Source of the DNA: a virus
Lineage: Duplodnaviria > Caudoviricetes
Virus record (IMG/VR): IMGVR_UViG_3300025875_000012
Location: 4,647 to 68,646 of that record
Strand: one strand, 5' to 3'
Length of the DNA stretch: 64,000 nucleotides
The notes under the pieces were generated by a model. It made no database searches. It saw nothing but the letters and a program-made list of their open reading frames with translations, and was not told where the DNA came from. The translations under genes were made by a program, and so were the position numbers. Below are positions 19,494 to 59,167 of this stretch, piece by piece (the first letter of the stretch is position 1; the number at the start of each line of letters is the position of its first letter).

Positions 19494-19526
19494 CACCTAC
19501 CCGCACACCCCTACCCCGGGAGCATC

Positions 19527-20364: not shown

Positions 20365-20365
20365 C

Positions 20366-20959: not shown

Positions 20960-20977
20960 GCACATCTGCCCAGCACG

Positions 20978-21006
20978 TTGACACTTCTGACCATCTGCCC
21001 TAAGAT
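20978..21006 (+). promoter_or_regulatory. SigA-type promoter with TGCCCTAAGAT box (probably leaderless mRNA)
   Basis: TTGACA-N17-TAAGAT; the ATG at 21013 begins 7 nt after the -10 box. Confidence 0.8.
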
Positions 21007-21012
21007 CGAAAC

Positions 21013-21204
21013 ATGACGACGACGGCGTGCGACCTGGAGCGGTGCGAGCGGTGCGGGCAGGAGACGGTGGCGGGCAACGACGCCGCCGGCCTCTGCTCGA
21101 CCTGCTCGGGCCCGACCACCCTCGACGCGCTGCTCCGCCGCATGGCGGCCGGCGTCACCCGCGACCCGCGCTCGGGCCGCTTCGCCTCTACCCGGAAGGC
21201 CTGA
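21013..21204 (+). CDS. Small zinc-ribbon protein
   Basis: CERC...CSTC; 63 aa. Confidence 0.65.
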   Translation: MTTTACDLERCERCGQETVAGNDAAGLCSTCSGPTTLDALLRRMAAGVTRDPRSGRFASTRKA

Positions 21205-21207
21205 GCC

Positions 21208-21552
21208 ATGAAGAACCTCTTCAGCAAGATCGGCGTGGGCCGCGCCCAGCCGACGCCCCCTCCCCGCCCGGGGTACGACAAGCACCTGCTCCGCTCGCTG
21301 GTCCTGAGCCCCTGGGGCAAGGACAAGATGCGCTTCGGCTACGTCGCCAAATGGAACGGGCTCTACTGGTTCAACGCCGTTGGCATCGCCGGTCCCGAGT
21401 GGAACGACGGGCGCTGGCTCGGGGGCATGTCCTGGCACAAGCACGGGCCCTTCGTCGTCTGCCGCCATCGTCGTCGGGGCTCTTGGCGCAGCGACCGCGC
21501 CTTCAAGCGCGCGATGGCTCGCGCCGACGTCTACGACGCCGAGAAGGCCTGA
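21208..21552 (+). CDS. Hypothetical protein
   Basis: 114 aa, Trp/basic-rich. Confidence 0.6.
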   Translation: MKNLFSKIGVGRAQPTPPPRPGYDKHLLRSLVLSPWGKDKMRFGYVAKWNGLYWFNAVGIAGPEWNDGRWLGGMSWHKHGPFVVCRHRRRGSWRSDRAFKRAMARADVYDAEKA

Positions 21553-21553
21553 C

Positions 21554-21766
21554 GTGGCGCTCACCGAGGCCCAGACGCGCGTCTGGGCGGCCCTGGGGGC
21601 TGCCGGGCAGCCCCTGACCACCGAGGAGGTCCGCGAAGCTGCCCGGCTATCCCCGGGCGCCACGGTGGGCGCCCTCAACCACCTCCGCCGCCAGGGCGTG
21701 CGCTACGCCGCCGGCGGCCGGCTCGGCACCCTCTGGTGGCTCCCCACCACGACCCCGAAGGACTGA
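21554..21766 (+). CDS. Winged helix-turn-helix DNA-binding protein
   Basis: LTEAQTRVWAAL...PLTTEEVREAARLSPGATVGALNHLRRQG. Confidence 0.65.
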   Translation: MALTEAQTRVWAALGAAGQPLTTEEVREAARLSPGATVGALNHLRRQGVRYAAGGRLGTLWWLPTTTPKD

Positions 21767-21768
21767 CC

Positions 21769-22005
21769 ATGCTCACCACCACCCCCGATTGGCGCCGGAC
21801 GGCTCTGCCTCGCGCACTGCAGCTGCGCCAGGTGCACGGCGACGCCCCGGGGTCGACTGAGATCACCCGGTGGACTGTCCGGCGTCTCGGTATCGCTCTG
21901 GAAACCGTGCTCGTGCCGCACGACGACGACCTGGACGGCTGGAGCCAGAGCAGTCGCCAACTGGTCGACGCCGCGGCTGCAGCGAGGGCCATTGTTGACG
22001 CCTGA
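21769..22005 (+). CDS. Hypothetical protein
   Basis: ATG after GAAGGA; 78 aa. Confidence 0.55.
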   Translation: MLTTTPDWRRTALPRALQLRQVHGDAPGSTEITRWTVRRLGIALETVLVPHDDDLDGWSQSSRQLVDAAAAARAIVDA

Positions 22006-22023
22006 CCAGCGATGCCCTAAGAT
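21995..22023 (+). promoter_or_regulatory. SigA-type promoter with TGCCCTAAGAT box
   Basis: TTGACG-N17-TAAGAT; shares gccctaagatagtgactac with the 18361 promoter. Confidence 0.8.
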
Positions 22024-25460: not shown

Positions 25461-25846
25461 GCATCCGCAACGGCGTCACCGTCCGCGGGACGACCAACGA
25501 GAACGCGCGGGGCAACAGCCGCGACCGCGCCGCCCGGCGCGCGTGGCTGGTGCAGACCTACCGGGCCGACGTCGACGTGCTGCTGTTCACCAACGAACAG
25601 GACGTCCCGACCCTGACCGATGGTCGCCCCGAAGTGGTCGCGGCTATCGCGGCCCGGGTCCCAGGTCCCGTGTCGGGGTGGCTGATGGCCTGTCGGTGCT
25701 ACCGGTGCGGGTCGCTGCTCACCGAGGAGACCTTGACCGTGGACCGGATCATCCCTGGCTGCAAGGGCGGCACCTACCGTCGGTCCAACATCCGGCCGGC
25801 GTGCGGGGGCTGCAACTCCTCGACCGGCGGGCGGGTCCGCTCGTGA
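25457..25846 (+). CDS. HNH endonuclease
   Basis: CYRC...VDRIIPGCKGGTYRRSNIRPACGGCN. Confidence 0.8.
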   Translation: MSIRNGVTVRGTTNENARGNSRDRAARRAWLVQTYRADVDVLLFTNEQDVPTLTDGRPEVVAAIAARVPGPVSGWLMACRCYRCGSLLTEETLTVDRIIPGCKGGTYRRSNIRPACGGCNSSTGGRVRS

Positions 25847-26070
25847 GGGGCCTGGTGCTCGCCGGCGTGGCCGGCGCGGCGCTGGGCGCCGCGGCCGTGG
25901 TGCTTGTGCAGCGCGGTCGGCGAGTGTACGTTAGTAAGCGAGAGAAATGGTCAGAGTCTCAGCGACCGACGCCGGTGGCCACGCCGCACGTCGTCCGGAC
26001 CGTCGGGACCCCGACCAGCACCGCCACCCTTCGCACCTACCGCGTCCAACCCAGGAAGAGGCCAGCATGA
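25843..26070 (+). CDS. Hypothetical membrane-anchored protein
   Basis: GTGA overlap; N-terminal hydrophobic stretch. Confidence 0.45.
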   Translation: MRGLVLAGVAGAALGAAAVVLVQRGRRVYVSKREKWSESQRPTPVATPHVVRTVGTPTSTATLRTYRVQPRKRPA

Positions 26071-44273: not shown

Positions 44274-44894
44274 ATGAGCACCGAGGGGCGCCAGACCTTC
44301 CGCCCCGACGGCCGGCCGCGGCCACGGCGCAAGAGCAACGCCCGGGTCCCCGACCGCTACCAGCAGCTGATCGACGGCGTGATCACCATCGACGACCTGG
44401 ACGAAGAGGAGATCATCCGCGGCCAGCTGCGCGACCAGAACGGCCACTTCTCCGGGCACCCGCCCCGGGCCATCCCCTGGACGCTGCACGACGCGCTGCG
44501 GGCCACGATGGAGAAGCGGATGCAGCGCAAGCTGATGTCCTCCCTTCCCGAGGTGCTGGACTCCCTGGTCCGCACCGCGCGCTACGACCGCTCGGGGGCG
44601 GCCCGGGTCGCCGCGGCGCAGCTGATCCTGGACCGCACGCTGGGCAAGGTCCCGGACAAGGCCGAGATCACCACCACGGTGACGGCGAAGTGGGAGGACG
44701 CGGCCAAGGGCGGCCGGATCTTCGTCGACCTGGACGCCGACGTCGTCGACGCGGACGTGGTCGAGCCCGAGCCCGAGGCCACCGAGGAGACCACCGAGGA
44801 GACCACTCCCCCGCCCCTCCCCCGCGGCACGGTGGAGATCGAGGCGGCGCCGGCGAAGGCGCCCGCGCGACCGAAGACGGGCGTCGTCATCTAG
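44274..44894 (+). CDS. Putative terminase small subunit
   Basis: ITIDDLDEEEIIRGQLRDQNGHFSGHPP and ARVAAAQLILDRTLGKVP resemble TerS-like actinophage proteins. Confidence 0.5.
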   Translation: MSTEGRQTFRPDGRPRPRRKSNARVPDRYQQLIDGVITIDDLDEEEIIRGQLRDQNGHFSGHPPRAIPWTLHDALRATMEKRMQRKLMSSLPEVLDSLVRTARYDRSGAARVAAAQLILDRTLGKVPDKAEITTTVTAKWEDAAKGGRIFVDLDADVVDADVVEPEPEATEETTEETTPPPLPRGTVEIEAAPAKAPARPKTGVVI

Positions 44895-45729: not shown

Positions 45730-46926
45730 ATGAGACTCGCACGAACCATCCTGCTCGGCGTCCTGGCCGTGCTGCTGACCGGCACCGCGGCCACCGCCAG
45801 CGCCAGCACCACCTACATCCTGACCGGCTCGAAGGCCCAGGAGCCGACCCTCTACCGGGGCTTCCCGAACGCCGTGGCGCGCGACGTCGCCGCGGCGCCC
45901 AAGGGCAGCCGGATCACCATGACCATGTACCTGCTCGACGACGTCGCCGTCACCGACCAGCTCATCGCCGCCCACAAGCGCGGCGTGCTCGTGCGGGCCG
46001 CCATCAGCCGGGCCGCGGCCAAGAGCGCCCAGGTGGTGCGGCTGCGCAAGGAGCTCGGGAGCGACAAGCGCAAGCCGTCCTACGTCTTCACCCCGCGGGC
46101 GTCCGGCTTCGGCCCGACCGGGGAGCTGCACGCCAAGCTGGTCACCCTGTCCCAGACCGGCAGCCAGCGCTACGTCTCCTACTTCGGCTCGGCGAACCTG
46201 GCCTACACCAACATCGGCGGCAGCTGGAACGAGGCGCAGCGGGTCGCGGACAACAAGACGATCTACGACGGCCTGGTGGCCTACGGGCTGAACGCGGTCA
46301 CCGACCGCAACCAGCCGCACTACAACCGCACGGTGAAGGCCGGCCCGCTCACCCTGCACCTGATGCCGGGCGGCACCCGCCAGCTGCGCACGCAGCTGGA
46401 CCTGGTCAAGCCCGGGAAGGGCTGCGAGCTCCGGGTCAACGAGTACATGTGGTCGGGGGCCAGCAGCACCCTGGGCGACGCCCGCAAGCTCAAGTCGCTG
46501 GCCGCCAAGGGCTGCAAGGTCTACGTCGCCATCAACTGGCAGACCGGCATCAAGGTGCTGGCCAGCCGCGAGGTCCTCAAGGAGCTGGTCGGCGCGAAGA
46601 ACGTCCAGGTCCGCAACAGCCGGATCGTGGGCGGCGCCATCGTGGTCGGCACCTACACCCACGTCAAGGGCGCCCTGTTCGCCTACGGCGGCCACAAGGT
46701 GGTCTTGTCCGGCTCCCAGAACGAGAAGGCCTCCGGGCCCTCGGAGAACGCCGACATCGCCGCGGTCCGCCGCGACGACGTCACCGCCTACAACGCCTAC
46801 AACGGCTTCTTCGGCCGGCAGTGGGCGAAGTCGGCGCCGATGACCAAGGTCCCGAGCGTCAGCAGCGCGGCGCGCAGCATGGACCGCGACGAGGTCGACC
46901 CGCCGGAGACCGACACGGCCGAGTAG
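45730..46926 (+). CDS. Secreted phospholipase D-superfamily protein
   Basis: Signal peptide MRLARTILLGVLAVLLTGTAATASA; two HxK motifs (LHAKL...GSAN; THVKG...GSQN). Confidence 0.8.
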   Translation: MRLARTILLGVLAVLLTGTAATASASTTYILTGSKAQEPTLYRGFPNAVARDVAAAPKGSRITMTMYLLDDVAVTDQLIAAHKRGVLVRAAISRAAAKSAQVVRLRKELGSDKRKPSYVFTPRASGFGPTGELHAKLVTLSQTGSQRYVSYFGSANLAYTNIGGSWNEAQRVADNKTIYDGLVAYGLNAVTDRNQPHYNRTVKAGPLTLHLMPGGTRQLRTQLDLVKPGKGCELRVNEYMWSGASSTLGDARKLKSLAAKGCKVYVAINWQTGIKVLASREVLKELVGAKNVQVRNSRIVGGAIVVGTYTHVKGALFAYGGHKVVLSGSQNEKASGPSENADIAAVRRDDVTAYNAYNGFFGRQWAKSAPMTKVPSVSSAARSMDRDEVDPPETDTAE

Positions 46927-46954: not shown

Positions 46955-46992
46955 GCAGAGCCCCCGCCATTGGATCGTGGCGGGGGCTCTGC
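46955..46992. terminator. Bidirectional terminator between convergent units
   Basis: 15-bp stem gcagagcccccgcca/tggcgggggctctgc. Confidence 0.75.
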
Positions 46993-46997
46993 GCTGC

Positions 46998-47279
46998 TCA
47001 GGACTCGCGCGGACCGACGCTCTTGCGCACCATCTCGTAGCCCGCCCCGGCCGCCCGGTCGAGCACGACGGCGCGGCCCTCGGCCACCGTCTTCATCCCG
47101 TCGGCGATCTCCCGGGCGGTGAGCCCGTGGTGGTGGTAGAGCCACCGCCAGGTGTTGGCCATCCGCTCGGCCTGCTTGCTGGCCTCGGCCTGGGCGGCGA
47201 CCTTCTTGGCCAGCGCCGCGCCGGCCGCGCGCCAGAGCTCCTCGACGCTGGGGGCCTCGATCCCGACCTCAGGCGACAT
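46998..47279 (-). CDS. Small helical protein, possible DNA-binding regulator
   Basis: 93 aa; GLTAREIADGM; last gene of the minus-strand operon. Confidence 0.6.
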   Translation of the reverse strand: MSPEVGIEAPSVEELWRAAGAALAKKVAAQAEASKQAERMANTWRWLYHHHGLTAREIADGMKTVAEGRAVVLDRAAGAGYEMVRKSVGPRES

Positions 47280-47517
47280 GGATGACCACCACGATGACCA
47301 GGCCGGTGACCTCGATGGCCAGGAACATTTGGATCCAGGTCAGCACGGGGCTGGCCACCTGGGCCCGCCGCGTCCGCACCAGCACCCCGCCCTCCCAGGT
47401 CTCGGTCTCCTGGGTGTGGTCGTTGGGCTTCCACGCGGACACGATGGTGATCAGCGTCGCCCCCACGAGGGCGAGCAGGCTCACGATCACGACGGCGATC
47501 TGGGTGAAGACGTTCAT
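47269..47517 (-). CDS. Small two-TM membrane protein (Spd-like)
   Basis: ATG 47517 overlapping the previous stop; two hydrophobic helices. Confidence 0.65.
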   Translation of the reverse strand: MNVFTQIAVVIVSLLALVGATLITIVSAWKPNDHTQETETWEGGVLVRTRRAQVASPVLTWIQMFLAIEVTGLVIVVVIHVA

Positions 47518-49583
47518 GCTGCGCTCCCGGGGAAGGTCGGGGGACGCCAGCCGAGCCGGGGTCCCCACTTGTCGATGTCGGTGATGGGGCCGGCGGAGAT
47601 CATGCCCTGCTGGTACCGCCCGGTCTTGGCGTTGTAGTCGGTCGAGATGATCATGTCGTCGCCCAGTGACAAGGCGACGTGGTTCTCACCCCAGAACACC
47701 AGGGCGCCCCGCGGCGGGGTCTCCTTGCCGGGGTGCCGCTCGCCGGGGGCCTCCCAGTGCTGGCGGGCGGTGTCGTAGCCGCTCCCGAGCCCGTAGGCCA
47801 GGTTCATGTACCGCTCGCACCGGTTCCACACCCGTTCCCCGGGCGCCCCGTCGGTGGCGTCGGCCTGCCGCATCCAGGCGATGGCCTGGGCCACGGTCCG
47901 GGGGTTCTTCTGCTGGTCGAAGCTCGCCGGCGAGGTGCCGCCGCCGGTGACCTCGCCCGGGGCCGCGGCGAAGGTGACCACGACCGGACGGTGGTCGGAC
48001 CCGCGCGGAGCCAGGGTGGCCTGGCTGGTCGGGGATGCGCCGGCGGCCCAGACGTCGTCGAGCGTCGCGGTGCCGTGGGTGTTCAGCTGGCCGAGGCTCT
48101 GCCAGCTGGCGACCGCGCCGACCGCGGCCATGGCCGTCGAGGTCGACGACGACACCTTCCACGGGTCGTTGAAGTCCCCGGTGACCAGCACGGTGGCGCC
48201 CAGGGCCCGCTTCTCGGCCACGACCCGGGTGACCGCGGCGAGCTGCCGGTCGTAGGCCGCGCGCCGCTTCGGGCCCGCGGCCTTGCTGACCAGCATGTGG
48301 GTGTTGACCACGTAGAAGACCGCGCTCGAGCTCTTGTCCCGCAGCTGGGCCCAGACGATGGACTTGGGGCCCGCCGAGCGGCTGCCGTCGACCGGGGAGT
48401 ACTCGACCCGCACGCCCTCGGGCAGGGCCTTGACCACGCCCTGGTCGACGATCATGTACCGCTTGGGGTCGTACATGATCGGGGTCGCGGTGTTGTTGCT
48501 GGTCATCTCCCAGCCGGCCGTCTTGCGCAGCCGGACGCGCACCGCGGGGGACACCTCCTGCAGCCCGATCACCGCGCTGGTCTTGGCCATCTCGGCCAGG
48601 CCGGCGTGGACGTTGGCGAAGGCGTTGCCGTAGCGCACGTTCCAGGTGGCCACACCGCCCTGCACGGTCCCGCCCCCGGCCGGGCACGCCGGGATGGGCT
48701 CGGTGGTCGCGGGCGGCAGAGAGCCCGCCTCCGTGCCGCCCACGGCCGCCAGGAGCCGCCGGGCGTCGCTCTCCCAGCGTCCGTACCGGTCCGGGTGTCC
48801 TGAGCGCTCCACGGCCTGCGCCGCGTCGTTGATGCTCATCTGCTCCCAGCCCTGCACCCCCTGCAGCTGGGTGAGGAACCAGCGGGCCCCGTAGGTGACG
48901 TCCAGGCGCTGCTCGCGGGTGCCGTTGCTGTCGATCAGCTGCCACGGCCCGAGGGAGGACCCCTCGCCGTAGTTCAGGTTGCGCGGCCCGTTCGGCCCGG
49001 ACTCCTGCATCCCGGCGGCCAGCGCCACGACGGCGGCGCGGTCGTCGAGCCCGGCCGCGGCGACCTCGCGTACGACGACCTGGGCGATGGACTTGTTCTC
49101 GGGGGTGAAGCCCGGCCGCTGGGGGCTGCCGGTGCTGGTGCTGATGCTGGCGAGCTTGGGGTCGAACGGCTCGGCCTCGGGCGGCGGCGCGTCCGGCACG
49201 GGGTTGTCCGGGGTCACCGCGTTGGTGGGGCAGCACGAGGCGATGGCCAGGGCCCGGCGCCGGTCGCTCTCGACCCGCCAGCCGGTCTGCCAGCTGGAGT
49301 CCTCCCCGGTCTTGGTGTTCTCCCCCAGGTTGTCGACCCAGCCCATCACCGTGCCGATGCCGCCCATGACGGTGCGGTAGACCTCCGGCACGCTGGGGGC
49401 GTCGCCCTCGGTGAAGGCGTGCAGCACCTTGCCGACGTCGCCGAACTTCTCGCCCACACTGTAGGCCGCGGGCACGCTAGGGTCGGGCCCGCAGACGACG
49501 TCGACCTCGTCCATGTTGAAGGCGACCATGCCGACCACCAGCACGCCGGCGACCCCGGCGGCGATGCCGCGTCCGAGGTTCAT
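47514..49583 (-). CDS. Membrane-anchored multidomain wall hydrolase: lysozyme-like + EEP + NlpC/P60(CHAP)-like
   Basis: ALAAGMQES...SLGPWQL...AAQAVERS; TWNV/GLQE/NTH/GDFN/SDHRPV; RCERY...ALVFW..NHVALS. Confidence 0.8.
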   Translation of the reverse strand: MNLGRGIAAGVAGVLVVGMVAFNMDEVDVVCGPDPSVPAAYSVGEKFGDVGKVLHAFTEGDAPSVPEVYRTVMGGIGTVMGWVDNLGENTKTGEDSSWQTGWRVESDRRRALAIASCCPTNAVTPDNPVPDAPPPEAEPFDPKLASISTSTGSPQRPGFTPENKSIAQVVVREVAAAGLDDRAAVVALAAGMQESGPNGPRNLNYGEGSSLGPWQLIDSNGTREQRLDVTYGARWFLTQLQGVQGWEQMSINDAAQAVERSGHPDRYGRWESDARRLLAAVGGTEAGSLPPATTEPIPACPAGGGTVQGGVATWNVRYGNAFANVHAGLAEMAKTSAVIGLQEVSPAVRVRLRKTAGWEMTSNNTATPIMYDPKRYMIVDQGVVKALPEGVRVEYSPVDGSRSAGPKSIVWAQLRDKSSSAVFYVVNTHMLVSKAAGPKRRAAYDRQLAAVTRVVAEKRALGATVLVTGDFNDPWKVSSSTSTAMAAVGAVASWQSLGQLNTHGTATLDDVWAAGASPTSQATLAPRGSDHRPVVVTFAAAPGEVTGGGTSPASFDQQKNPRTVAQAIAWMRQADATDGAPGERVWNRCERYMNLAYGLGSGYDTARQHWEAPGERHPGKETPPRGALVFWGENHVALSLGDDMIISTDYNAKTGRYQQGMISAGPITDIDKWGPRLGWRPPTFPGSAA

Positions 49584-49894
49584 CGGCGGTGCTCGAGGGC
49601 CAGGCTGACCAGCCGCATCACCCCGGCGACCACGAGCAGAACCAAGCCGATGGCCACCGCGACCTTGGCCATCGGGCTGCCGCCGCCGATGTTGATCATC
49701 TTGCCGGCCCCGACCATCATCCCGATCCCGGTGGCGGCCACCCAGGTCGAGCGCCGGTAGCGCTTCTTCGCCGTCCAGCTGCTGGTGGTCACGGTCGCGC
49801 CCTTGACCGTCCGGGTGACGGGGCGGCTCTCCCGGACCTGGATCGTGCGGCCGTTGACGACCCGGGTGTGCGCTCGGCGGGTGTGCGTGCTCAT
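49580..49894 (-). CDS. Small membrane protein with basic N-terminus
   Basis: ATG 49894 overlapping the FtsK stop; two TM segments. Confidence 0.65.
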   Translation of the reverse strand: MSTHTRRAHTRVVNGRTIQVRESRPVTRTVKGATVTTSSWTAKKRYRRSTWVAATGIGMMVGAGKMINIGGGSPMAKVAVAIGLVLLVVAGVMRLVSLALEHRR

Positions 49895-51894
49895 TCGCTC
49901 TCTCCGTAGCCAGGGATGTGGGTGAGGTGCTCGTTGCGGCCGACCAGCGCGGGCTCGGGCCGGACCTTCCGGCGCGGGCGGGGCCGCGGTGCCGGGACCG
50001 CCGCCTCGAGCTCGCTGGCCGGGACCAGGCGCCGGCGCACGGGCTCGGCGACCAGGGGCTTGACCGGGGCCGGCTCGGGCACCGCGGTGATGGCCTTCGG
50101 CCGCCGGCGGCCGGGCAGCCGCGGGGTCTTGACCACGGCGCCGTCGCGCTCGAACTTCGGGCCGCGGTAGGTGAGCCGGGACAGGTGGACGTGCCGGTTG
50201 TTGCCGGCGCCGGCGATGTTGAACATCGGCTGCAGGGCGTGGATCTCGGCCGACTCCCAGTCGCGCGCCGCGGGCTCGCCGGCGAACACCCCGGAGGTGG
50301 TGTGGTCGACGTGCTTGGCCCACCAGCTGCAATCGGTCTCCCCGCACCCGGGGAACGGGCAGCGGCCCTTCCAGATGTCGTCGCGGCGGTGCTCGGCGTA
50401 GCGCCGGTCGCGCTTGTTGGTCTCGCCCGAGTAGATGTGCACCGGCCGCCCCTTGACCAGCCCGTAGGCCCGGTAGCCGTAGTGGGGGCGCTGGCCGTTG
50501 CGCAGCTCGCGCGCCAGGTCGCGGGTCATCATGTTCTCCGGCAGCTTGCCGGTGGTCATCAGGTGACGGACGTGGGTCTTCCCGACATCGGCGGTCCGGA
50601 ACTTCATCCGGACCCCTTCTTCGGTGACGTAGTAGCCGACTCCGCGCATATCGAAGGGAATGCTGGAGCAGGGCACACCTTCGTTCTCCCCAATTCCCAG
50701 AACGGCCTTCGTGTCCTCGGCAGAGGTCTGGCGAAGAGATGCCCGGAACTGGAATGCCTTGCGAATCCCACCGATCTCCTGAACGGTGGCGACCTGCACG
50801 CTCATCCAGACGAAATCCTTGGTACTGCGGCCCTGGGACATGTAGACGCCCATGTCAGTCTTCGCCATTCCGGCCTGGAAAAGCGGCGCGACGTCGAGGC
50901 CCTCGTCGATAATGGTGAGCACGCCGGGCATCTCGTCGGTGGGGTCGTCCAGGTCCTCGCCCGGGGGCAGCATGTCCTGGCGCTCGTGCAGCTGGCGGCG
51001 CAACGTGGCGAAGTGGGCCTCGGCCTCGGCCAGCGTGGTCATGTACGAGGCCACCTTGATGTGGCCGTCGCCGAAGGTCTTCCCGACCCAGCCGCGGAAC
51101 CACTTCATCTCGCCCTTGGGGTCGATGACGTGCACCAGGGTCGGGGTCTGGTCACGGACCAGGTCGAACCAGAGGTTCCAGGTGAACTTGCTCTTGCCGG
51201 CCCCGCTGGCCGCCCCGACCAGCAGGTTGAAGCCGTAGGGGACCGTGGCCGCCTTGCCGTCGTTCTGCCAGCCGAAGGACAGCGAGCTGGTGCCCGAGGG
51301 CGGCAGGTCCAGCACCGAGCGGGTCTCGGCCAGGGGGCTGGTCTTCCAGAAGGTGACCCAGCCGGCGCCGTCCCCGACGGGGCTGATGGAGACCTCCTTG
51401 CAGTCCATGACCCCGGTGAGCACGCCGGTGGCGGCGTCGGCGGAGATGCGGGCCATGTCCCCGCCCAGGGAGCCCGGGGAGACGAAGGCCCGGACCTCCC
51501 CGCCCGGGGTCAGCTTCTTGCGCAGCAGCTTCGGCTCGATGCCGTTCCAGGAGACCTTCTGGGCCGAGGTGTACTTCGCCCAGCGCTCGTCGACGTCGCC
51601 GAACTTCTTGCCCGAGCTGGCCAGGTTGAACGGCAGCCGCCACCACGGCACCTCGAGGCCCTCGTCGATGAGCTCGGCGCGGCGGTCGTAGACCTTGAGC
51701 AGCAGCACCCAGGCGATCAGCACGCCGATGGTGAACAGCACGGCCCAGAAGCCGGTCACGATGCTGTTGGTCAGGCCCCAGCAGAACCACCAGTAGGCCA
51801 CGAAGAGGGTCAGGGCGGCCTTCGGCGGGAAGTCGATCCAGCGCCGGTTCGGGGTGCGGATCCACTTCCAGAGGGCCTTGAGGGTGGGGGACAT
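49891..51894 (-). CDS. FtsK/SpoIIIE (TraB-like) membrane ATPase fused to a GIY-YIG nuclease domain
   Basis: ATG 51894 with AGGAAGG RBS; N-terminal TMs; GAASGAGKS, IDPK, IIDE, SQGRS, VQ motifs; C-terminal YGYRAY..YSGET..RRYAEH..E..P.FN. Confidence 0.85.
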   Translation of the reverse strand: MSPTLKALWKWIRTPNRRWIDFPPKAALTLFVAYWWFCWGLTNSIVTGFWAVLFTIGVLIAWVLLLKVYDRRAELIDEGLEVPWWRLPFNLASSGKKFGDVDERWAKYTSAQKVSWNGIEPKLLRKKLTPGGEVRAFVSPGSLGGDMARISADAATGVLTGVMDCKEVSISPVGDGAGWVTFWKTSPLAETRSVLDLPPSGTSSLSFGWQNDGKAATVPYGFNLLVGAASGAGKSKFTWNLWFDLVRDQTPTLVHVIDPKGEMKWFRGWVGKTFGDGHIKVASYMTTLAEAEAHFATLRRQLHERQDMLPPGEDLDDPTDEMPGVLTIIDEGLDVAPLFQAGMAKTDMGVYMSQGRSTKDFVWMSVQVATVQEIGGIRKAFQFRASLRQTSAEDTKAVLGIGENEGVPCSSIPFDMRGVGYYVTEEGVRMKFRTADVGKTHVRHLMTTGKLPENMMTRDLARELRNGQRPHYGYRAYGLVKGRPVHIYSGETNKRDRRYAEHRRDDIWKGRCPFPGCGETDCSWWAKHVDHTTSGVFAGEPAARDWESAEIHALQPMFNIAGAGNNRHVHLSRLTYRGPKFERDGAVVKTPRLPGRRRPKAITAVPEPAPVKPLVAEPVRRRLVPASELEAAVPAPRPRPRRKVRPEPALVGRNEHLTHIPGYGESE

Positions 51895-51983
51895 CGGCGG
51901 GCCTTCCTGGGGTAGGGGGTGGAGATGGGAGAGCGCCGTCGCCCTGGCCGGCGGCGGCGCTCTGGTGGGGTGACCGGGACGGG

Positions 51984-52220
51984 TCAGGGGGTGGCGGGCT
52001 TCTTGGCGGACGCGATGTCCATGGCCTCGGAGAACTTGTCCCCGCCCCCGGACGTGGAGCCGGCGATGATGCCGGACCCGATCTCGAAGGTGTCCCGGGT
52101 GCCGTTGGCCAGGTTGGCGGCCTTCTGGGTGGAGGTCATCTGGGCGATGCCTCCGAGCGCTAACGCGCAGACCACGAAGACGCCGGCGAGCAGCCGGCTG
52201 AGTGAGCCCTGCTTGAACAT
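51984..52220 (-). CDS. Small pilin-like/secreted protein
   Basis: ATG 52220 with AGAAGGG RBS; 78 aa with one N-terminal hydrophobic helix. Confidence 0.65.
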   Translation of the reverse strand: MFKQGSLSRLLAGVFVVCALALGGIAQMTSTQKAANLANGTRDTFEIGSGIIAGSTSGGGDKFSEAMDIASAKKPATP

Positions 52221-52820
52221 GTGGTGCCCTTCTGTCGAGGGCCAGCGGCCCTGGGTTAGGTGTCGACCGCTGACGTGCACCGCTCGTCGCCGCGGACCTC
52301 TCCGAGGTCAGACGCGGCATGTTCTCGACCTGGCCTCGCCCGACTTCCGGAGCCGTTCCCGCTGGTGGCTCACGACTGTCAGTTGTCGTGGGTATCACTT
52401 TACCCATAGATCGACATATCCACCCAAGAACCGCTCCGCCTCCCGGTCTCCAGGCCCCCGTCCCCGCCTGATCCTTGCGTCGGCTTGACTCGCCGGTTAC
52501 GCTCGCGGCGTCTCACGCTCTCCGAGACTCGGCCGCCGCGCAGCCCTCTCCGGGCCCCTACCGCCCCGAATCCGTCGTCGCCGGCGCCCCGCATCCCAGT
52601 CGACGTCCCGCTCCTCGGGCGTCATGCCTCTCCCGGGTGCAGCGCTCCCCCTGCAGCTGCCCACCGCGCGCCCCTCGCGGTCTCGTCCCCGTCAGCCGCG
52701 CATCGTCCCGGGCGATCACCCGCCCCCGCCTTCCCTCGGCTCGTTCCGCACCTCCGATGCGTTTCCGTCCTCGGCCCTACACTGAACCCCGGGTCGAGGC
52801 CACCCTCCCGAAGGACAGCT

Positions 52821-53795
52821 ATGTCGAGAAGGTCTGCGCCCACCGTTGCCAGCTGGAACGTCTGGATGGGCAACACCCCCGCGAACATCCGCCGAGGACT
52901 GAGGGCGCTGATCGACGCGGGCGCCGACGTGATCGGCTGCCAGGAGCTCAGCGTGGACGCCTCCTACCTGGACGCGCGCAGCTTCATGGCGACGCTGGGC
53001 TGGGGGTCGACGGCGAAGAACAACGCCATCCCGATCTTCTTCGACGAGGCCGTCTACGACCTGGTCGACGAGGACTACCAGGTGGTGAACCTGGGCGGTG
53101 AGCCCTGGGAGCCGGGGACGGGCGGGGACACGGTCATCCGCAAGGCGCTGACGTGGGTGCGGCTCAAGCACCGCGCGACCGGCGAGGAGACCTACGTCGT
53201 CAACAACCACATCGTTCCGGGCATCGAGGCCGACGGGCAGATCCGCAAGGACGTCCCGAAGCGGCTGGCTGTCTACGTCGAGCAGATGGACGCGCTGGCC
53301 GAGATCTGTCGGGCGTTCAGCCGGACCGGGGCGGCCGTGGCCGCGACCGGGGACTTCAACCTGGCGCACAACGAGCCGTCCGGGGAGGACCTGCGCCGGC
53401 GCATGGGCGCGGTCGGCTTCCGGTCGTGCTGGCAGGCCCTGGGTGACGACCAGCCGACCCACGGCGACCGGATCATCGACTACGTCTGGTTCGACCGGTG
53501 CTGGGCCAAGAGTGACCGTGTCTTGGACAAGTACGGGAGTGACCACTCACCGGTCGTTTGTGACCTGAACCCGTACTTGCGGACCTACGTGGTCGACCGG
53601 AGTCGATTTGTCGACCCGGACGACGGGAAGAACTTCCTCTGGGGCGTCAACGTCGCCACGGGGGAGGCCGAGCTCAAGCGCAAGCCCGGCTTCGCCATCA
53701 CGACGGGCGTGGCCATCACCACCATCAAGGGGCGGAAGTGGCTGGTCACCGAGGCCGGCTACCGCTACGCCCTCAGCTTCCTGCGACCCGCCTGA
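52821..53795 (+). CDS. EEP (endonuclease/exonuclease/phosphatase) protein with small C-terminal domain
   Basis: ATG 52821 after AAGGA; SWNV, DVIGCQE, NNH, TGDFN, IDYVW, GSDHSPV. Confidence 0.85.
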   Translation: MSRRSAPTVASWNVWMGNTPANIRRGLRALIDAGADVIGCQELSVDASYLDARSFMATLGWGSTAKNNAIPIFFDEAVYDLVDEDYQVVNLGGEPWEPGTGGDTVIRKALTWVRLKHRATGEETYVVNNHIVPGIEADGQIRKDVPKRLAVYVEQMDALAEICRAFSRTGAAVAATGDFNLAHNEPSGEDLRRRMGAVGFRSCWQALGDDQPTHGDRIIDYVWFDRCWAKSDRVLDKYGSDHSPVVCDLNPYLRTYVVDRSRFVDPDDGKNFLWGVNVATGEAELKRKPGFAITTGVAITTIKGRKWLVTEAGYRYALSFLRPA

Positions 53796-53808
53796 GAGAG
53801 GGCTGACC

Positions 53809-54495
53809 ATGACCATGCACCCACCCAGCGTGAAGCTGTGGACCGACGAGGACGTCCTGCACGCCGCCCAGGAGATCGACGCCCTGTTCTCGCGGCCGGA
53901 CTGGACGAGCACCTACCCCGGGCACGGGGAGAACGGCGCCCGCTACTCGGTCGACTTCATGTGCTCGAAGACCATGGGCGACAAGATCGCTCCGTACCTC
54001 TGGAAGAACCGGAAGCGCCTCGGCATCTGGTACGTGATCTGGTACGGCCGGATCATCTCCGAGACCTACGCCTCGGCCGGCTGGCGGCGCTACTTCGCGG
54101 CCAACGACCCCAACCCCTCCAAGTCGCACAAGAACCACACGCACGCCTCGTTCTACCCGGGCCGGGATTACCACCCGCTCATTCCCGTGACGCCCGCGGT
54201 GAAGGGCGAGCACGCCGTTCCGACTGACCGGGTGATCTACCTGGATAAGCTCAACCCCGGGGTCCGGGATTCCGACTCGGTATTCCACCTGCAGACCCTG
54301 CTGAACAAGGTCAACGACAAGGACATCCTGCGGACCGGGAACTACGACGCGGCCACGGTGGCCAGCGTCAAGGTGTTCCAGGAGAAGATGCACGACGACA
54401 TCGTCGACGGCGACATCGGCGAGTTCGGCCTGGCCGCGCTCATCAACCTGGCCGGCCCGGCGTTCAAGGCCTTCGTGGTCGAGGAGCAGTCGTGA
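53809..54495 (+). CDS. Endolysin (M15-like Zn peptidase + peptidoglycan-binding domain)
   Basis: YPGH...SVDFM...YVIWYGRI...HKNHTHASF; C-terminal SVFHLQTLLN...VKVFQ...VDGDIG. Confidence 0.8.
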   Translation: MTMHPPSVKLWTDEDVLHAAQEIDALFSRPDWTSTYPGHGENGARYSVDFMCSKTMGDKIAPYLWKNRKRLGIWYVIWYGRIISETYASAGWRRYFAANDPNPSKSHKNHTHASFYPGRDYHPLIPVTPAVKGEHAVPTDRVIYLDKLNPGVRDSDSVFHLQTLLNKVNDKDILRTGNYDAATVASVKVFQEKMHDDIVDGDIGEFGLAALINLAGPAFKAFVVEEQS

Positions 54496-54797
54496 GCGGC
54501 CAGCGTTACCTCGACGAGAACGCCGACGGGAAGCCGGACGTGGCCGGCCCCACGCCCCCGAGAACGCCGGTCAGCCCCAAGGTGATCGCGGCGACCATCG
54601 CGGCCTTCCTGGCGCCGGCGCTCTACCTGACCATCGGCTACCTGACCACCGACGAGGGCAAGCAGATCTACGCCGGGCTGCACCCGGTGCTGCGGATCTT
54701 CATCGGCGGCGTGATCTCGAGCGCGGCCGTGGCCCTGTCGAGCTACGTCAAGCGGGACCGGCTCCGAGAAGCTGGTGCTCGCGCGATGAAGCCCTGA
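54492..54797 (+). CDS. Holin
   Basis: Two TM helices, basic C-terminus, directly after the endolysin. Confidence 0.7.
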   Translation: MSGQRYLDENADGKPDVAGPTPPRTPVSPKVIAATIAAFLAPALYLTIGYLTTDEGKQIYAGLHPVLRIFIGGVISSAAVALSSYVKRDRLREAGARAMKP

Positions 54798-54933: not shown

Positions 54934-57435
54934 GTGGCGATCCTGCTCGACGAGGACCTGGCCGAGAACGAGACCGGGCATCTGGCCGCTCACGCCGAGC
55001 TGAGGACCGCCTACCTGTCCCGCGGGTCGGGGCGGGCGATGACCGAGTTGCTCGACACGATGACCCAGGCGGACTTCCGGGCCGCGCACCGCGCCGTGCA
55101 CAACCAGCTGCACGCCGAGCACAACGCGCTGGGCGCCGCCGGGGTCCTGCCCAACCCGGTCGGGACGGCCGGCCACCTCGAGCACCACCGCCTGCTGCAC
55201 ATCGCTCACAACCTGCGGAACCGCAAGTCCGCGGTGGGCGTCGGGACGATCACCCAGAGCAACACGGTCTCCTGCGTCAGCTCCAAGGTCGCGGCGAACC
55301 GGGCCGGCACCGGGGTGCCGATCATGCAGGCCAGCACGCTGGTCAGCACCGGCGCCCGGCTCGCGGCCGCCATGCCGACGACCGACCTGGCCTACCGCTT
55401 GGTGGCCGACGACCTCACCGGCGCCGACTCCTCCGCCCAGGGCACCTGGAACCCGCGCACCGGCTCGGGCGCCGCCGCCCAGGCCACAGCCAACAACCAG
55501 CCGCTGCTCAAGGTCGGCGCGCTGAACGGCCACAACACGCTGGCCTTCGACGGGCTCAAGCACACCCTGGCGCTGAGCGGCTCGGCCCTGTCGCTGTCCC
55601 GCAACAAGCCCTACCTGACGATCTCGATCATCTACCGCACCCCCAGCTACGCGCTGACCAGCGGCGTGCGGACGCTGTTCGGGATGTCCACGGGCACGGC
55701 CACGACCACGGCCCGCACGGTGATCCAGCACCGCAACACCGACGGTGTGCCGGTCGCCCTCGGCCGCCAGCTGGACACCAACTCCTCGGTCGCCGCCATC
55801 GGTACCGGCACGTCCACGGGCACCAGCGAGGTGATGATCCTCACCGCCATCTACCGCTGGAACACCTCGGACCTGCTGCTGTTCAAGAACGGCACCCAGA
55901 TCGCCGCGCGCACCGACTTCCAGGCGGACGGGCTCACCAGCGACACCGCGTCGCTGGCCGGCGCCATCGGCTCGAACACCGCGGGCACGGCCGAGTTCTA
56001 CCCGGGCGAGATCGCCGAGATCGCGGTGCACAACAGCGCCGACCTGACCGGGGACCTGGTCAAGCAGCTCTCGGCCTACGCCGCGGCCACCTACGGCTCG
56101 GTCGACACCACCGCGCCGACCGACACCTCCCAGCCGATGCCGGCCACGGACCTGCCGGGCTGGAAGCTGGTCTACGCCGAGGACTTCACCAAGACCGCGG
56201 CGCTCGGCCAGATCGAGACGGTCTACCCCGAGATCCCGCAGTACAAGAACTTCCAGGACACCTCGAAGAACGGCACCTACCGGCCGGACAAGGTGCTCAG
56301 CGCGGGGATGCGGCCCGACGTCGCGGACTCCAAGGGGGTCCTGGACTTCTGGATGCACAGCGAGATCGTCAACGGGACCTCCCAGCACATGGTGGCCTGC
56401 CCGATCCCGGGCGGTTACACGGGCCGGCTGCTGGTGCGGCACGAGACCCGCTTCCGGGTCGACCGGCCGATCCCGCTCTACAAGATCGCCTTCCTGCTGT
56501 GGACCACCCCGGACGAGTGGGACGAGGAGCTCGACTTCGCCGAGGGTGGACTGAACGGCGGGTCCATCGAGCACAACCACCACGCGCTCGGGGCCTCGAC
56601 CCCCTATCCCATCAACACCGGGGTGCAGATCGGGGTCGGCTGGCACACCTCGCGGGTGGAGATCACCGACAAGTCCACCCGGTACTACGTCGACGGCGTC
56701 CGGACGCTGACCGCGACCTTCGCCATCCCCCAGAAGCTCAAGCGCTCGGGGCTGCAGGCCGAGACCAACCTGAACAGCTCGACGCCGCCGGCGGACTCGA
56801 CCGAGGGCCACCTGATGGTGGACTGGTACACGATCCACGAGGGCATCGCGGGCTACGACTACACGACCACCGACAACTACACCTTCGTGGCCGCCACGGG
56901 CGCGGCCCTGCCGGGCCCCTGGACCACGGTGCGGGGGACGGCCGCCGTGGACACGAACCGAGCGAAGCTGACCAGCACGACGGCCCAGTGGAACAGCGCC
57001 ATGATCCGGCTCAACGCGATGTTCAGCGACGGGAAGCTCACCGCGCTGCGGGTCACCCCGCCGGCCACCGGGGGCACGGCCTACTTCGGCTACCGCTTCA
57101 ACGCCGCGCTGGACAGCGGCTACGTGATGGCGCTCAGCGGCACCGGGGTGTTCCGGATCGGGCGCTGGGTCAACGCCAGCGTGACCTGGCTGGGCAACTC
57201 GGTGACCCTGGACTTGTCCGGGGGCAAGGTCTGGAACCTGGCCGTGGAGCCGTCCGCCGGCAACCACAAGGCCCGGGCCTGGCTGGACGGGACCACCGAG
57301 CCGACGACCTGGGACATCGGTCCGGTGGCCGACTACAACGGGCTCCGCGGGGAGGTGGTGGCCATGTCCCAGACCAGCGTCTCGGGAACCGCCGCCACCA
57401 CGCTGGTCGACGACGTCAAGATCTACACGCCCTGA
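54934..57435 (+). CDS. Virion protein with LamG-like and GH16 glycoside hydrolase domains
   Basis: His-rich N-terminus; LAFDG/GEIAEI LamG-like motifs; WKLVYAEDF and EELDFAEG (ExDxxE GH16 motif). Confidence 0.75.
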   Translation: MAILLDEDLAENETGHLAAHAELRTAYLSRGSGRAMTELLDTMTQADFRAAHRAVHNQLHAEHNALGAAGVLPNPVGTAGHLEHHRLLHIAHNLRNRKSAVGVGTITQSNTVSCVSSKVAANRAGTGVPIMQASTLVSTGARLAAAMPTTDLAYRLVADDLTGADSSAQGTWNPRTGSGAAAQATANNQPLLKVGALNGHNTLAFDGLKHTLALSGSALSLSRNKPYLTISIIYRTPSYALTSGVRTLFGMSTGTATTTARTVIQHRNTDGVPVALGRQLDTNSSVAAIGTGTSTGTSEVMILTAIYRWNTSDLLLFKNGTQIAARTDFQADGLTSDTASLAGAIGSNTAGTAEFYPGEIAEIAVHNSADLTGDLVKQLSAYAAATYGSVDTTAPTDTSQPMPATDLPGWKLVYAEDFTKTAALGQIETVYPEIPQYKNFQDTSKNGTYRPDKVLSAGMRPDVADSKGVLDFWMHSEIVNGTSQHMVACPIPGGYTGRLLVRHETRFRVDRPIPLYKIAFLLWTTPDEWDEELDFAEGGLNGGSIEHNHHALGASTPYPINTGVQIGVGWHTSRVEITDKSTRYYVDGVRTLTATFAIPQKLKRSGLQAETNLNSSTPPADSTEGHLMVDWYTIHEGIAGYDYTTTDNYTFVAATGAALPGPWTTVRGTAAVDTNRAKLTSTTAQWNSAMIRLNAMFSDGKLTALRVTPPATGGTAYFGYRFNAALDSGYVMALSGTGVFRIGRWVNASVTWLGNSVTLDLSGGKVWNLAVEPSAGNHKARAWLDGTTEPTTWDIGPVADYNGLRGEVVAMSQTSVSGTAATTLVDDVKIYTP

Positions 57436-57481
57436 GGTAGCCTGAGCGGCGTCGAGGCCACGATGATCCTGGAAGGGCTCC

Positions 57482-57832
57482 ATGCCTCTCTCGACCTCGG
57501 CCAAGAACACGATGCTGACCGCGCTGGCGGGGGTGGCTGCCTACGCCTCGCTGCACACCGCTGACCCGAGCACCACGGGGGCCTCGGAGGCCACCGGCGG
57601 CAGCCCGGCCTACGCCCGCAAGGCGATCACCTGGAACGCCGCGGCCGCGGCGAACCTGGACAACCTGGCCAACCCGGTGTTCGACGTCCCGGCCGGCACC
57701 TACACCCACTTCGGGCTGTGGACCGCGGCCACCGGCGGCACCTTCCTGGGTGGCGGCACGCTGTCGGCCTCGGAGACCTTCTCGGCTCAGGGGCAGTACA
57801 CCCTGAGCGACGTCGACGTGAACCTCCCCTGA
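57482..57832 (+). CDS. Small virion structural protein
   Basis: SLHTADP...YARKAITW...THFGLWTAATGGTFL. Confidence 0.7.
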   Translation: MPLSTSAKNTMLTALAGVAAYASLHTADPSTTGASEATGGSPAYARKAITWNAAAAANLDNLANPVFDVPAGTYTHFGLWTAATGGTFLGGGTLSASETFSAQGQYTLSDVDVNLP

Positions 57833-59163
57833 TGAGCTACGCGGAAGAGCAGCGGCGCTTCGAGTCGATGGGCGAGAGGGCTGACGCCGAGATCGCCGTG
57901 GTGCGAGCCGCTCTGGCGGCCAAGGCCGACGAGCTCGCGGCTGCCAAGGCCGACGACCTGTCCGACGAGGCCCAGATCACGAAGCTGGCCGGCGACCTCG
58001 CGGCTGCGCAGGCGCGCATCGTGGAGCTGCAGGCGCTGCAGCCCACCGACGACCGCCCCAGCGGCCCGGGCTTCGTGCGGTACGAGAGCCTCTACCGGTC
58101 CGGGGACACCGTCTCCGACGTCCTGGCCCGGGTCTCTGACGGGCGTGTGGTGACCTTCCCGGAGGGCCGCTTCGAGGTGGCGGACTTCGCCGCCGGCTAC
58201 CTGGCGGGCATCAGCGTCGCCCCCGGCTGCGGCGGGATCATCGGCAGCGGCCAGGGCACCCTCGGCGGCAGCAAGGGCACCGTCTTCACGATGAAGGAGC
58301 GGAGCTCGACGAAGGCCGCCCTCGTGCCCAAGCAGGACGACGTCACGCCGATGCAGCTGGTCCTGCTCAAGTCGCTGGACCCCACCACCCCGAAGACGTT
58401 CCAGAACTTCCAGGTGGCCGGCACCGAGCAGGGGCACATCTACTCGCTGGTGCAGCACTACAACAACGGCAGCGGCGGCCAGCGCGCGCTGATGGACACC
58501 CTGTTCCAGGACCTGCTTCTGGTCGGCTGGGACGGCAACGCCGGCGCCCCTCCCGGCGAGACGTCGGCCCTGTCGGTCTCCGGGCCGGGCTACCACGTCC
58601 AGCGCCGGGTCGAGATCGACGGTCGTCGTGCGCTGGGCGGGCCGGTGTTCGGGGCGATGGGCCTCACCCACCAGAACGCCTACGGCGCCCTGGCCGAGGA
58701 CGTCTACTCCCACCACTGCCGGGTCGCCAACTTCGTCGGCTTCCAGTCGGTCAACGGCATCGTGCGCCGGCTCCGCTCCGACGCGGCCACCGGTGTGACG
58801 AACGGCCTCGGCAACGGGTCGCTGAACTTCGAGCGCACGGCCGGCTACCTGCTCGAGGGCTGCGAGATCATCGGCCGGCAGCGCAAGGTGCACATCACGC
58901 ACAGCAACGACCACTGGTCGCTGAACCTGAACGGGAAGAGCTACCCCATCGACGGCGGCTCGCTGACGGTCGTCGACCCGAAGTGGAACGGCCTCTGGCG
59001 CCCCGACGAGCTGGCGGACTACCTCTACGTCCAGTCGTGGGGCCCGTACTGGAACGGGTCGACCATGAGCTTCTCCAAGACCGCTCCGGTGGTCCGCAAG
59101 GCCGATGGCTCGCACATCCCGTACAAGTACGTGGCCGCGGACGGCCGGGGAGTCGTGACCTGA
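57832..59163 (+). CDS. Pectin-lyase-like beta-helix protein (tailspike/depolymerase-like) with N-terminal coiled coil
   Basis: TGATG overlap; VVTFPEGRF...GIIGSG typical of beta-helix N-termini. Confidence 0.6.
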   Translation: MSYAEEQRRFESMGERADAEIAVVRAALAAKADELAAAKADDLSDEAQITKLAGDLAAAQARIVELQALQPTDDRPSGPGFVRYESLYRSGDTVSDVLARVSDGRVVTFPEGRFEVADFAAGYLAGISVAPGCGGIIGSGQGTLGGSKGTVFTMKERSSTKAALVPKQDDVTPMQLVLLKSLDPTTPKTFQNFQVAGTEQGHIYSLVQHYNNGSGGQRALMDTLFQDLLLVGWDGNAGAPPGETSALSVSGPGYHVQRRVEIDGRRALGGPVFGAMGLTHQNAYGALAEDVYSHHCRVANFVGFQSVNGIVRRLRSDAATGVTNGLGNGSLNFERTAGYLLEGCEIIGRQRKVHITHSNDHWSLNLNGKSYPIDGGSLTVVDPKWNGLWRPDELADYLYVQSWGPYWNGSTMSFSKTAPVVRKADGSHIPYKYVAADGRGVVT

Positions 59164-59167
59164 GCCG

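Follow-up and report, generated by a model that had tools for sequence, protein, structure and literature searches.

The unit and its genes

Six genes on the minus strand occupy positions 46998–52220 of a 64,000-nucleotide stretch of viral DNA (the window; positions 4,647–68,646 of IMG/VR record IMGVR_UViG_3300025875_000012). They are numbered g1 to g6 in the order of transcription, and the phage genome that carries them is designated G000; related genomes and loci bear other G and L numbers. The unit encodes a membrane-anchored DNA motor with a predicted nuclease fused to it, a predicted membrane-anchored cell-wall hydrolase and four small proteins (Table 1). All six open reading frames (ORFs) have a coding-type bias in codon-position G+C (GC3), and we conclude that the six-gene unit described in an earlier note on this DNA is real. 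That it is the only minus-strand unit holds in part: GC-frame analysis reveals no other clear one, but small minus-strand ORFs (25774–25950, for example) may also be genes.

The g2/g3, g3/g4 and g4/g5 pairs are joined by ATGA overlaps and g5 and g6 overlap by 11 bp, as had been reported. Ribosome-binding sites resembling GGAG or GAAGG precede g1, g2, g3 and g5; for g4 and g6, contrary to the description of intact sites throughout, none is clear, and these two genes probably start by translational coupling. The hairpin that follows g6 has a 15-bp stem and a folding energy of −49.3 kcal/mol (z −4.95), and 0 of 200 shuffled sequences fold equally well. It is likely to be the bidirectional terminator proposed for the end of the unit, though it was missed by a simple terminator scan because it has no U tract.

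Table 1. Genes of the minus-strand unit and the non-coding features at its ends, in window coordinates
Feature	Position	Strand	Description
g1	51984–52220	minus	78 aa; N-terminal signal/anchor, Gly/Ser/Ala-rich extracytoplasmic part
g2	49891–51894	minus	667 aa; membrane-anchored FtsK/SpoIIIE motor and predicted GIY-YIG nuclease
g3	49580–49894	minus	104 aa; basic membrane protein
g4	47514–49583	minus	689 aa; predicted membrane-anchored multi-enzyme wall hydrolase
g5	47269–47517	minus	82 aa; two hydrophobic segments (7–25, 64–82)
g6	46998–47279	minus	93 aa; soluble, probably helical
G+C-rich hairpin	46955–46992		between the convergent stops of a PLD-like gene (plus) and g6 (minus)
Non-coding stretch	52221–52821		~600 bp without codon-position GC bias, from g1 to the divergent lysis cassette

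A motor fused to a nuclease

The g2 product begins with a two-helix membrane hairpin (residues 24–77), which leads into an FtsK/SpoIIIE α-β motor (residues ~90–435) with Walker A (GAGKS, 230–235) and Walker B (DE, 330–331) motifs. A GIY-YIG nuclease domain follows (residues ~468–566; Y474, Y488, G490, R498, H502, E547 and N559), and the chain ends in a disordered Pro/Arg tail and a terminal motif, HLTHIPGYGESE (49891–49930), which is conserved in closer relatives and may be a docking peptide for a partner. The hairpin and the intact motor motifs bear out the earlier assignment of g2 as a transmembrane (TM)-anchored FtsK/SpoIIIE ATPase; the nuclease fused to it, to judge from its residues also intact, is new beyond that description.

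As a single sequence, g2 lies below the detection level of Pfam PF01580. An exhaustive search with g2 returned 262 clusters (formed at 50% identity) at E ≤ 1e-3, and in a diverse alignment of 51 members Walker A GK, Walker B DE, Y474, G490, R498, E547 and N559 are invariant, with Y488 and H502 invariant or nearly so. Pfam detects FtsK_SpoIIIE (PF01580) in 32 of these 51 sequences and GIY-YIG in 19 (best E 1.8e-8). Compared with the PDB, the family profile matches FtsK (2e-24), EssC/EccC (8e-21), TcpA (7e-16) and the N-terminal GIY-YIG domain of UvrC (2e-3); in the ESM Atlas, the neighbours of g2 are generic FtsK proteins only.

The AlphaFold (AF2) model of g2 (pLDDT 84.4) comprises the membrane hairpin, a full α-β FtsK motor, the nuclease domain and the disordered tail. 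In a Foldseek search with this model, FtsK (6t8g, 4e-15 over ~400 columns) and TcpA (5e-14) come out on top, with the whole α-β motor superposing, and HerA-type ATPases that have nuclease or other effector partners are found among the neighbours. The nuclease is modelled with a β-β-α-β-α core at pLDDT >90 that matches GIY-YIG secondary structure. The Walker motifs, the β and α domains and the superposition on FtsK place g2, as judged from sequence and model, in the FtsK/SpoIIIE superfamily, and the core fold and catalytic residues similarly place its C-terminal domain, a predicted nuclease, in the GIY-YIG superfamily.

Motor and GIY-YIG domain follow one another in 121 of 134 full-length family representatives, and 113 of the 121 have N-terminal membrane segments; the fusion is therefore the defining architecture of the g2 family. 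Sporadic insertion of a homing endonuclease was considered as the source of the nuclease and rejected because the fusion is present in 90% of the full-length members. Only two short helices (residues 439–465), and no winged helix, lie between the motor and the nuclease, so that in the model the GIY-YIG domain occupies the place of the DNA-reading winged helix of FtsK and TraB. By hhalign, the g2 motor profile matches pIJ101 Tra with an E value of 8e-16 (probability 98.6%, 304 columns), E. coli FtsK with 8e-20 and a lone phage FtsK-like gene, gp108 of Streptomyces phage Wofford, with 1.3e-15. The suggested relation to TraB is thus borne out as far as homology goes, yet Tra lies no nearer to g2 than E. 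coli FtsK or the lone phage gene does, and the motor seems at least as close to E. coli FtsK as to Tra.

A membrane-anchored hydrolase

The g4 product has an N-terminal anchor (residues 5–27), a conserved extracytoplasmic region (residues 28–150) with W82 and a CC motif, and two recognisable enzymes: an SLT-type lytic transglycosylase (residues ~160–283; PHROG 8e-21 and 8e-8) with the ES catalytic motif and a conserved ES...WQ pattern, and an EEP phosphodiesterase (residues ~308–540; Pfam 1.2e-6, Foldseek 5e-13) in which the N/E/D/H catalytic motifs are present. A C-terminal papain-like (CHAP/NlpC-P60-like) domain (residues ~589–656) is indicated weakly, by a PHROG match at 5e-4 and a low-confidence model; the g4 homolog P0163 carries SLT_3, EEP and NLPC_P60. 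The g4 model has a pLDDT of 57 and is poor outside the SLT and EEP domains, and a look-up of the anchor region in the ESM Atlas gave nothing usable. The positive-inside rule suggests an N-in/C-out orientation with the enzymes outside the membrane. The catalytic domains and their residues, together with this placement, identify g4 as a probable wall hydrolase of SLT/EEP type, and the anchor and the two domains sustain its earlier description as a membrane-anchored wall hydrolase.

By Foldseek, the structures closest to the EEP domain are a Bacteroides EEP protein and glycan phosphatase, Tdp2 and nocturnin, so that either a wall phosphodiester or DNA may be its substrate. The neighbouring lysis cassette is headed by a second EEP enzyme. 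A wall-polymer role for the EEP domain of g4 is favoured because the homolog of this second enzyme in L002 has LysM, and the lysis-cassette enzyme itself is suggested to be a wall-polymer phosphodiesterase with a LysB-like role. Relatives hold the anchor region of g4 but swap the enzymes, which may be SLT_3 with M23, NLPC_P60, SLT_3 with M23 and NLPC_P60, or SLT_3 with EEP.

The small proteins

The g1 product has one N-terminal hydrophobic segment. It has neither a family match nor a pilin motif, and the label 'pilin-like' given to it is without basis. Homologs are found in L001 and L004 (61%), L005 (55%) and L002 (35%); the motor gene is always preceded by a small membrane protein, and small genes are at this place also in L006, L008, L010–L012 and L017. 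The g3 product has a strongly basic cytoplasmic N-terminus (residues 1–48) followed by one weak and one strong membrane segment, and is possibly a DNA-contacting accessory subunit; its homologs lie directly after the motor gene in L001 and L004 (52% identity) and, judged by position, in L005. A homolog of g5 is at the same position in L005 (39% identity). The claim of two TM segments each for g3 and g5 stands for g5 and, with one segment weak, in part for g3.

The g6 product contains a helix-turn-helix-like stretch, LTAREIADGM, and is possibly a DNA-binding or regulatory subunit; it has no family match and no tblastn match in the related loci. Proteins of the DUF6221 family, with the motif ECEAKRRIVE...ADHPDY, lie between motor and hydrolase in L010 (9055–9405), L011 (7860–8117) and L012 (8621–9052), and none is present in G000. 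DUF6221 was tried as the counterpart of g6 and rejected, visual comparison of the sequences showing no resemblance.

Conservation and exchange of the cassette

The check on synteny proposed earlier showed one gene order in 10 of 11 distinct contexts: a small membrane protein leads, the motor-nuclease comes next, and the anchored hydrolase, with or without small proteins (at times DUF6221) ahead of it, is followed by further small membrane proteins. The hydrolase is thus found in 10 of the 11. The contigs bearing the cassette are mostly 42–84 kb long, with 66–70% G+C and phage genes, and all 11 contexts are phage-like. Lysis genes stand beside the cassette in L002, L006 and L012, and integrase, CI-like repressor or recombinase genes are near it in L010, L012 and L017.

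The close relative G002 has the cassette in the same reversed position as G000; its capsid is 91% and its polymerase 72% identical to those of G000, and its motor-nuclease 54%. The unrelated phage G001 has no match to the capsid or polymerase, yet its motor-nuclease is 70% identical, with 61% for g1, 52% for g3 and 62% for the g4 anchor. Because the motor match is 70% in an unrelated phage against 54% in a close relative, the cassette is an exchangeable module that moves between unrelated phages and diverges faster than the phage backbone. It is intact in a complete phage genome, and neither of the fates that the earlier note had allowed for, decay and flanking host DNA, applies to it. Ratios of non-synonymous to synonymous change (dN/dS; 0.32 for g2, >1 for g4) are unreliable because synonymous differences plateau at ~0.43 at a GC3 of ~0.9; they were not used and lend no support either way.

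When three members of the family were compared by tblastn with 50,697 records of cultured phages, no full-length match appeared, and the matches were lone FtsK-like or lone GIY-YIG genes only. Nucleotide searches with the region and tblastn with g2 against cultured phages and plasmids yielded nothing but one weak match to an FtsK of a Gordonia plasmid, the context of which is uninformative. Representative bacterial genomes gave no relative, which is weak evidence of absence as there was one usable peptide pattern. In this analysis the family is seen almost only in metagenomic phage contigs. Our literature search found no paper on the cassette, on a phage protein that joins FtsK to GIY-YIG, or on phages spreading in actinobacteria without virions.

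The phage and its likely host

The unit resides on a single contig of 68,646 bp, the full length of the IMG/VR virus record. Its ends share a 127-bp terminal redundancy and CheckV estimates its completeness at 100%, and we take the genome to be complete. It has ~70% G+C, and among its products are a tape-measure protein of 1,607 aa, a major capsid protein, tail proteins and a large terminase, as well as a replication set of topoisomerase-like protein, helicase, exonuclease, Sak4-like annealing protein, DnaE-like polymerase and primase-polymerase. Scans of the whole genome, limited in reach for a phage so divergent, found no Tyr or Ser integrase and no lysogeny genes. The carrier is a bona fide actinobacterial siphovirus, apparently non-integrating, in agreement with the earlier picture of a tailed phage that apparently does not integrate.

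The closest cultured phages infect Arthrobacter and Microbacterium (capsid 59–62% identical, polymerase ~49%); AnnaSerena, one of the nearest Microbacterium phages, lacks the unit in the region examined. Because these are the closest phages by capsid and polymerase, the framing in terms of Streptomyces and mycelia is doubtful. The host need not be Streptomyces or mycelial and is likely to be a unicellular actinobacterium of Micrococcales type.

Expression signals and flanking genes

The non-coding stretch upstream of g1, presumed to be a promoter or regulatory region, holds an AT-richer patch at ~52390–52435 and the palindrome CACGAC-N8-GTCGTG. A repeat scan, confined to these ~600 bp, revealed no strong repeats and no clt-like array; an Rfam scan of the unit and its upstream region gave nothing convincing, and the upstream DNA shows no sequence conservation with relatives. 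In L004 (8873–9687) and L005 (~9450–9665), 200–800 bp of non-coding DNA rich in G or C runs precede the cassette, dissimilar to that in G000.

Eight promoter-like sites (TTGAC-N15–18-TANNNT; 0.26 expected by chance), all on the plus strand at 16434–22023 and 36210, mark the early region. These sigma-70-like promoters read TTGAC-N17-TAAGAT, and a box TGCCCT(A/G)AGAT is common to seven of them. None of the eight stands before the minus-strand unit, and no promoter motif common to the unit and other operons was found. Between the tail and early genes, ~800 bp at ~16160–16970 lack codon-position GC bias and contain several promoter boxes; this is probably a regulatory or non-coding RNA region.

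Divergent from the unit is the lysis cassette (52822–54797, plus strand), with genes for the EEP-family enzyme, for an endolysin that carries PG_binding_1 and for a holin-like protein with two TM segments. The EEP gene probably starts at the ATG at 52822 because the stretch before it has no coding bias. Between the holin and terminase genes lie three large plus-strand ORFs (54934–61975; ~833, 533 and 939 aa) with strong coding bias and no PHROG match; a homolog of the first adjoins the cassette in G002. Convergent with the unit, the gene at 45733–46926 encodes a PLD-like protein that its signal peptide marks as secreted. This protein contains two PLDc_2 stretches, has a DrmC-like match in PADLOC at 5e-8 and may act as a nuclease or as a phospholipase; L001 likewise has a weak PLD gene upstream of its cassette. 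A protein matching small terminase in PHROG (6e-16) is encoded at 44274–44894, just upstream of the accessory region and ~18 kb from the large terminase gene, and a small-terminase-like protein adjoins the cassette in G002 as well (L005 16326–16886).

A possible conduit for DNA export

We propose that phages exchange the unit horizontally as a self-contained cassette, and that it encodes an apparatus of the 'cut-and-pump' kind that spans the envelope and exports DNA. The g2 protein would assemble on the cytoplasmic side as a membrane-anchored hexameric FtsK-type motor for double-stranded DNA (dsDNA), its GIY-YIG domains cutting DNA to provide an end or a defined substrate for the ring, and the motor would then drive dsDNA to and through the membrane, as in SpoIIIE, FtsK, TraB and TcpA. 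Anchored with its enzymes outside, g4 would open the peptidoglycan at the export site, where its EEP domain would probably cleave phosphodiester-linked wall polymers; g1, g3 and g5 would be small membrane subunits of the conduit, and the basic tail of g3 may contact the DNA. Exported in this way, DNA would cross a septum or enter a cell adjoining the infected one. Export is the favoured direction because, to our knowledge, every characterised membrane-anchored FtsK-type motor (SpoIIIE, FtsK, TraB, TcpA) exports DNA from its own compartment; SpoIIIE, for one, exports DNA from the compartment in which it assembles. The proposal is tentative, and we put its probability at about 0.4.

Several points tell against it. 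We detected no relaxase, no cis-acting site for transfer and no component of a channel or of the recipient side (VirB4, VirB6-like): neither relaxase (PF03432) nor an AAA_10/VirB4-like protein (PF12846) was detected in the whole genome, and no Pfam match to relaxase, VirB4 or VirB6/VirB8-like channel parts in the unit, by scans that are insensitive here (PF01580 misses g2 itself), and repeats were sought upstream only. The lack of relaxase, VirB4 and integrase matches reported in the earlier note is upheld to this extent, the reach of such scans being limited for a divergent phage. A domain that could recognise the phage's own genome and single it out is missing from the unit, and the motor-fused nuclease could equally be a DNA-destroying effector. 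Moreover, the cassette outpaces the backbone in divergence, swaps between unrelated phages and often adjoins lysis, integrase or repressor genes. Such positions and divergence are typical of conflict or accessory loci, and fast cassette-like evolution and a place near lysis or immunity genes fit a conflict function equally well. The likely hosts, unicellular and of Micrococcales type, weaken the rationale of mycelial spread, and the extracytoplasmic EEP domain, were it a DNase, could speak against delivery of intact DNA.

One possible pay-off of export is that a virulent phage passes copies of its own genome to neighbouring cells. A genome cut by the nuclease and pumped through a wall opened by the hydrolase would spread virion-free and bypass receptor resistance, and the cassette would be an exchangeable 'conjugation module' of actinobacterial phages. 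We regard this more specific idea as distinctly improbable.

About equally compatible with the evidence is a role in superinfection exclusion, or in competition with other phages or with plasmids, in which the motor-nuclease would seize an entering DNA end and cut or expel it while the hydrolase remodels the wall or strips receptors. An ATPase with a nuclease is a common anti-invader layout, and HerA-type complexes are among the structural neighbours of g2; HerA/FtsK-type translocases have been captured by defence systems (PMC10853773). PADLOC nevertheless gave no defence match at a meaningful level for any of the six proteins. The pace of divergence (54% for the cassette against 91% for capsid and 72% for polymerase in G002, and 70% with the unrelated G001) would suit such a function. 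So would the integrase, CI-like repressor or recombinase genes near the cassette in three loci, since actinophages keep prophage-expressed defence genes near integrase and repressor genes, but G000 itself is without lysogeny genes. The hydrolase differs among relatives in its enzyme domains, which would make sense if these follow the wall chemistry of the host; on the other hand, we know of no exclusion protein that needs a peptidoglycan hydrolase, yet one is present in 10 of 11 contexts. The characterised membrane-anchored FtsK-type motors, moreover, export DNA and do not pull it inward. On balance, exclusion seems to us rather unlikely, though it is the strongest rival of the export reading.

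The unit might instead be an accessory of host takeover or lysis, the nuclease-motor clearing host or branched DNA late in infection, with g4 and the 2-TM proteins as an auxiliary lysin and holin-like set. It is divergent from the EEP-endolysin-holin genes in G000, and lysis genes lie alongside in three other loci; the signal-anchor of g4 is as in some endolysins, g3 and g5 have the size and topology of holins, and no early sigma-70-type promoter precedes the unit, against eight in the early region. The phage already possesses a complete endolysin and holin, however, and this explanation gives no reason why a membrane-anchored DNA motor should be translationally coupled to a lysis helper across the family, or be anchored at all, as degradation of host DNA does not need it. 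We consider it a poor candidate.

Import of DNA, either the rest of the phage's own genome in a second step like that of T5 or extracellular DNA to be cut up as a source of nucleotides, is very unlikely. The layout is superficially that of competence, with an outside enzyme, passage through the membrane and a cytoplasmic motor, and on one side of the unit lies the gene for a secreted PLD-like enzyme, on the other that for a second EEP enzyme; but import would run against the direction of all characterised FtsK-type motors anchored in the membrane, a ComEC-like channel is absent, and the distance of the cassette from the genome end is not fixed in relatives. Protein secretion of type VII, with g1 and g6 as small substrates of the FtsK-like ATPase, is barely credible: the best NCBIfam match of g2 is EccCa (1e-5, at 24.6 bits far under the cut-off of 509), and EccC and EssC are among its sequence and structural matches, but g2 has one ATPase domain where EccC/EssC have three in tandem, the GIY-YIG nuclease fused to it suggests that the substrate is DNA, Pfam finds no WXG100 match for g1 or g6, and FtsK and TcpA align better, across the whole α-β motor.

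If the cut-and-export reading is true and DNA is moved through the envelope, phages would have, in addition to virions and transduction, a third way of driving DNA traffic, and a minimal motor-nuclease-hydrolase conduit could account for gene transfer, or for spread independent of virions, in communities of actinobacteria. If incoming DNA is destroyed instead, the cassette would be an exclusion system of a new, membrane-based kind. In both cases the fusion of motor and GIY-YIG makes up a large conserved family, so far unstudied, of about 260 clusters (50% identity), with the anchored hydrolase as its fixed partner.

Comparison with known systems

Lone FtsK-like genes of actinophages are exemplified by Wofford gp108, which is a motor of similar length and aligns with g2 as described above; it has no GIY-YIG domain and no adjacent hydrolase or small membrane genes.

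The TraB/Tra and Spd systems of Streptomyces plasmids and integrative and conjugative elements of actinomycetes (AICEs), such as those of pIJ101 and pSVH1, likewise combine a single membrane-anchored FtsK-type dsDNA motor of ~620–670 aa with small membrane proteins, encoded after it in an operon with start/stop coupling (in pIJ101, tra, spdA, spdB and kilB have coupled starts), and they need neither relaxase nor VirB4. TraB and the Spd proteins form a DNA-translocation complex, some components of which bind peptidoglycan (PMC4447253). The differences are that TraB has a C-terminal winged helix reading the 8-bp TRS repeats of a clt locus where g2 has a GIY-YIG nuclease, that the phage cassette includes a dedicated multi-enzyme wall hydrolase, and that TraB and Spd are borne by plasmids or AICEs with Rep, Int, spd and a GntR-type kil-kor regulator, the present cassette by tailed phages. 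No GntR-type regulator and no similarity of g1, g3, g5 or g6 to SpdA, SpdB, KilB or KorA was found in the unit. The parallel to tra-spd drawn previously is therefore retained for operon organisation and motor homology and given up for membership, as winged helix and Spd similarity are both lacking.

Conjugation in Gram-positive bacteria employs hydrolases of CwlT/TcpG type, and TcpA with TcpG and TcpI (pCW3) and ConQ with CwlT (ICEBs1) resemble the cassette in combining an FtsK-like membrane ATPase with a membrane-associated glycosidase/peptidase wall hydrolase. These systems further require channel proteins resembling VirB6/VirB8, as well as a relaxase and a VirB4-type ATPase, and they transfer single-stranded DNA with a motor that has no fused nuclease. 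With no relaxase or VirB4-type match in scans that are insensitive here, and with a GIY-YIG nuclease fused to its motor, the cassette does not belong with the Tcp and integrative-element systems to which it had been likened. It appears from these sequence comparisons to stand outside both the TraB/Spd and the Tcp/ICEBs1 systems, resembling both in outline only.

TdtA of Thermus thermophilus, which mediates the 'transjugation' of ICEth1, is a membrane-associated hexameric pump of FtsK/HerA type that expels DNA from the donor and requires nucleases encoded alongside it (PMC5365140). Its nucleases (NurA-like and a restriction enzyme) are separate proteins, it has no wall hydrolase, and it belongs to an integrative element in another phylum. 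By analogy, TdtA would nevertheless be the closest functional precedent for cutting and pumping DNA as we propose for the g2 protein.

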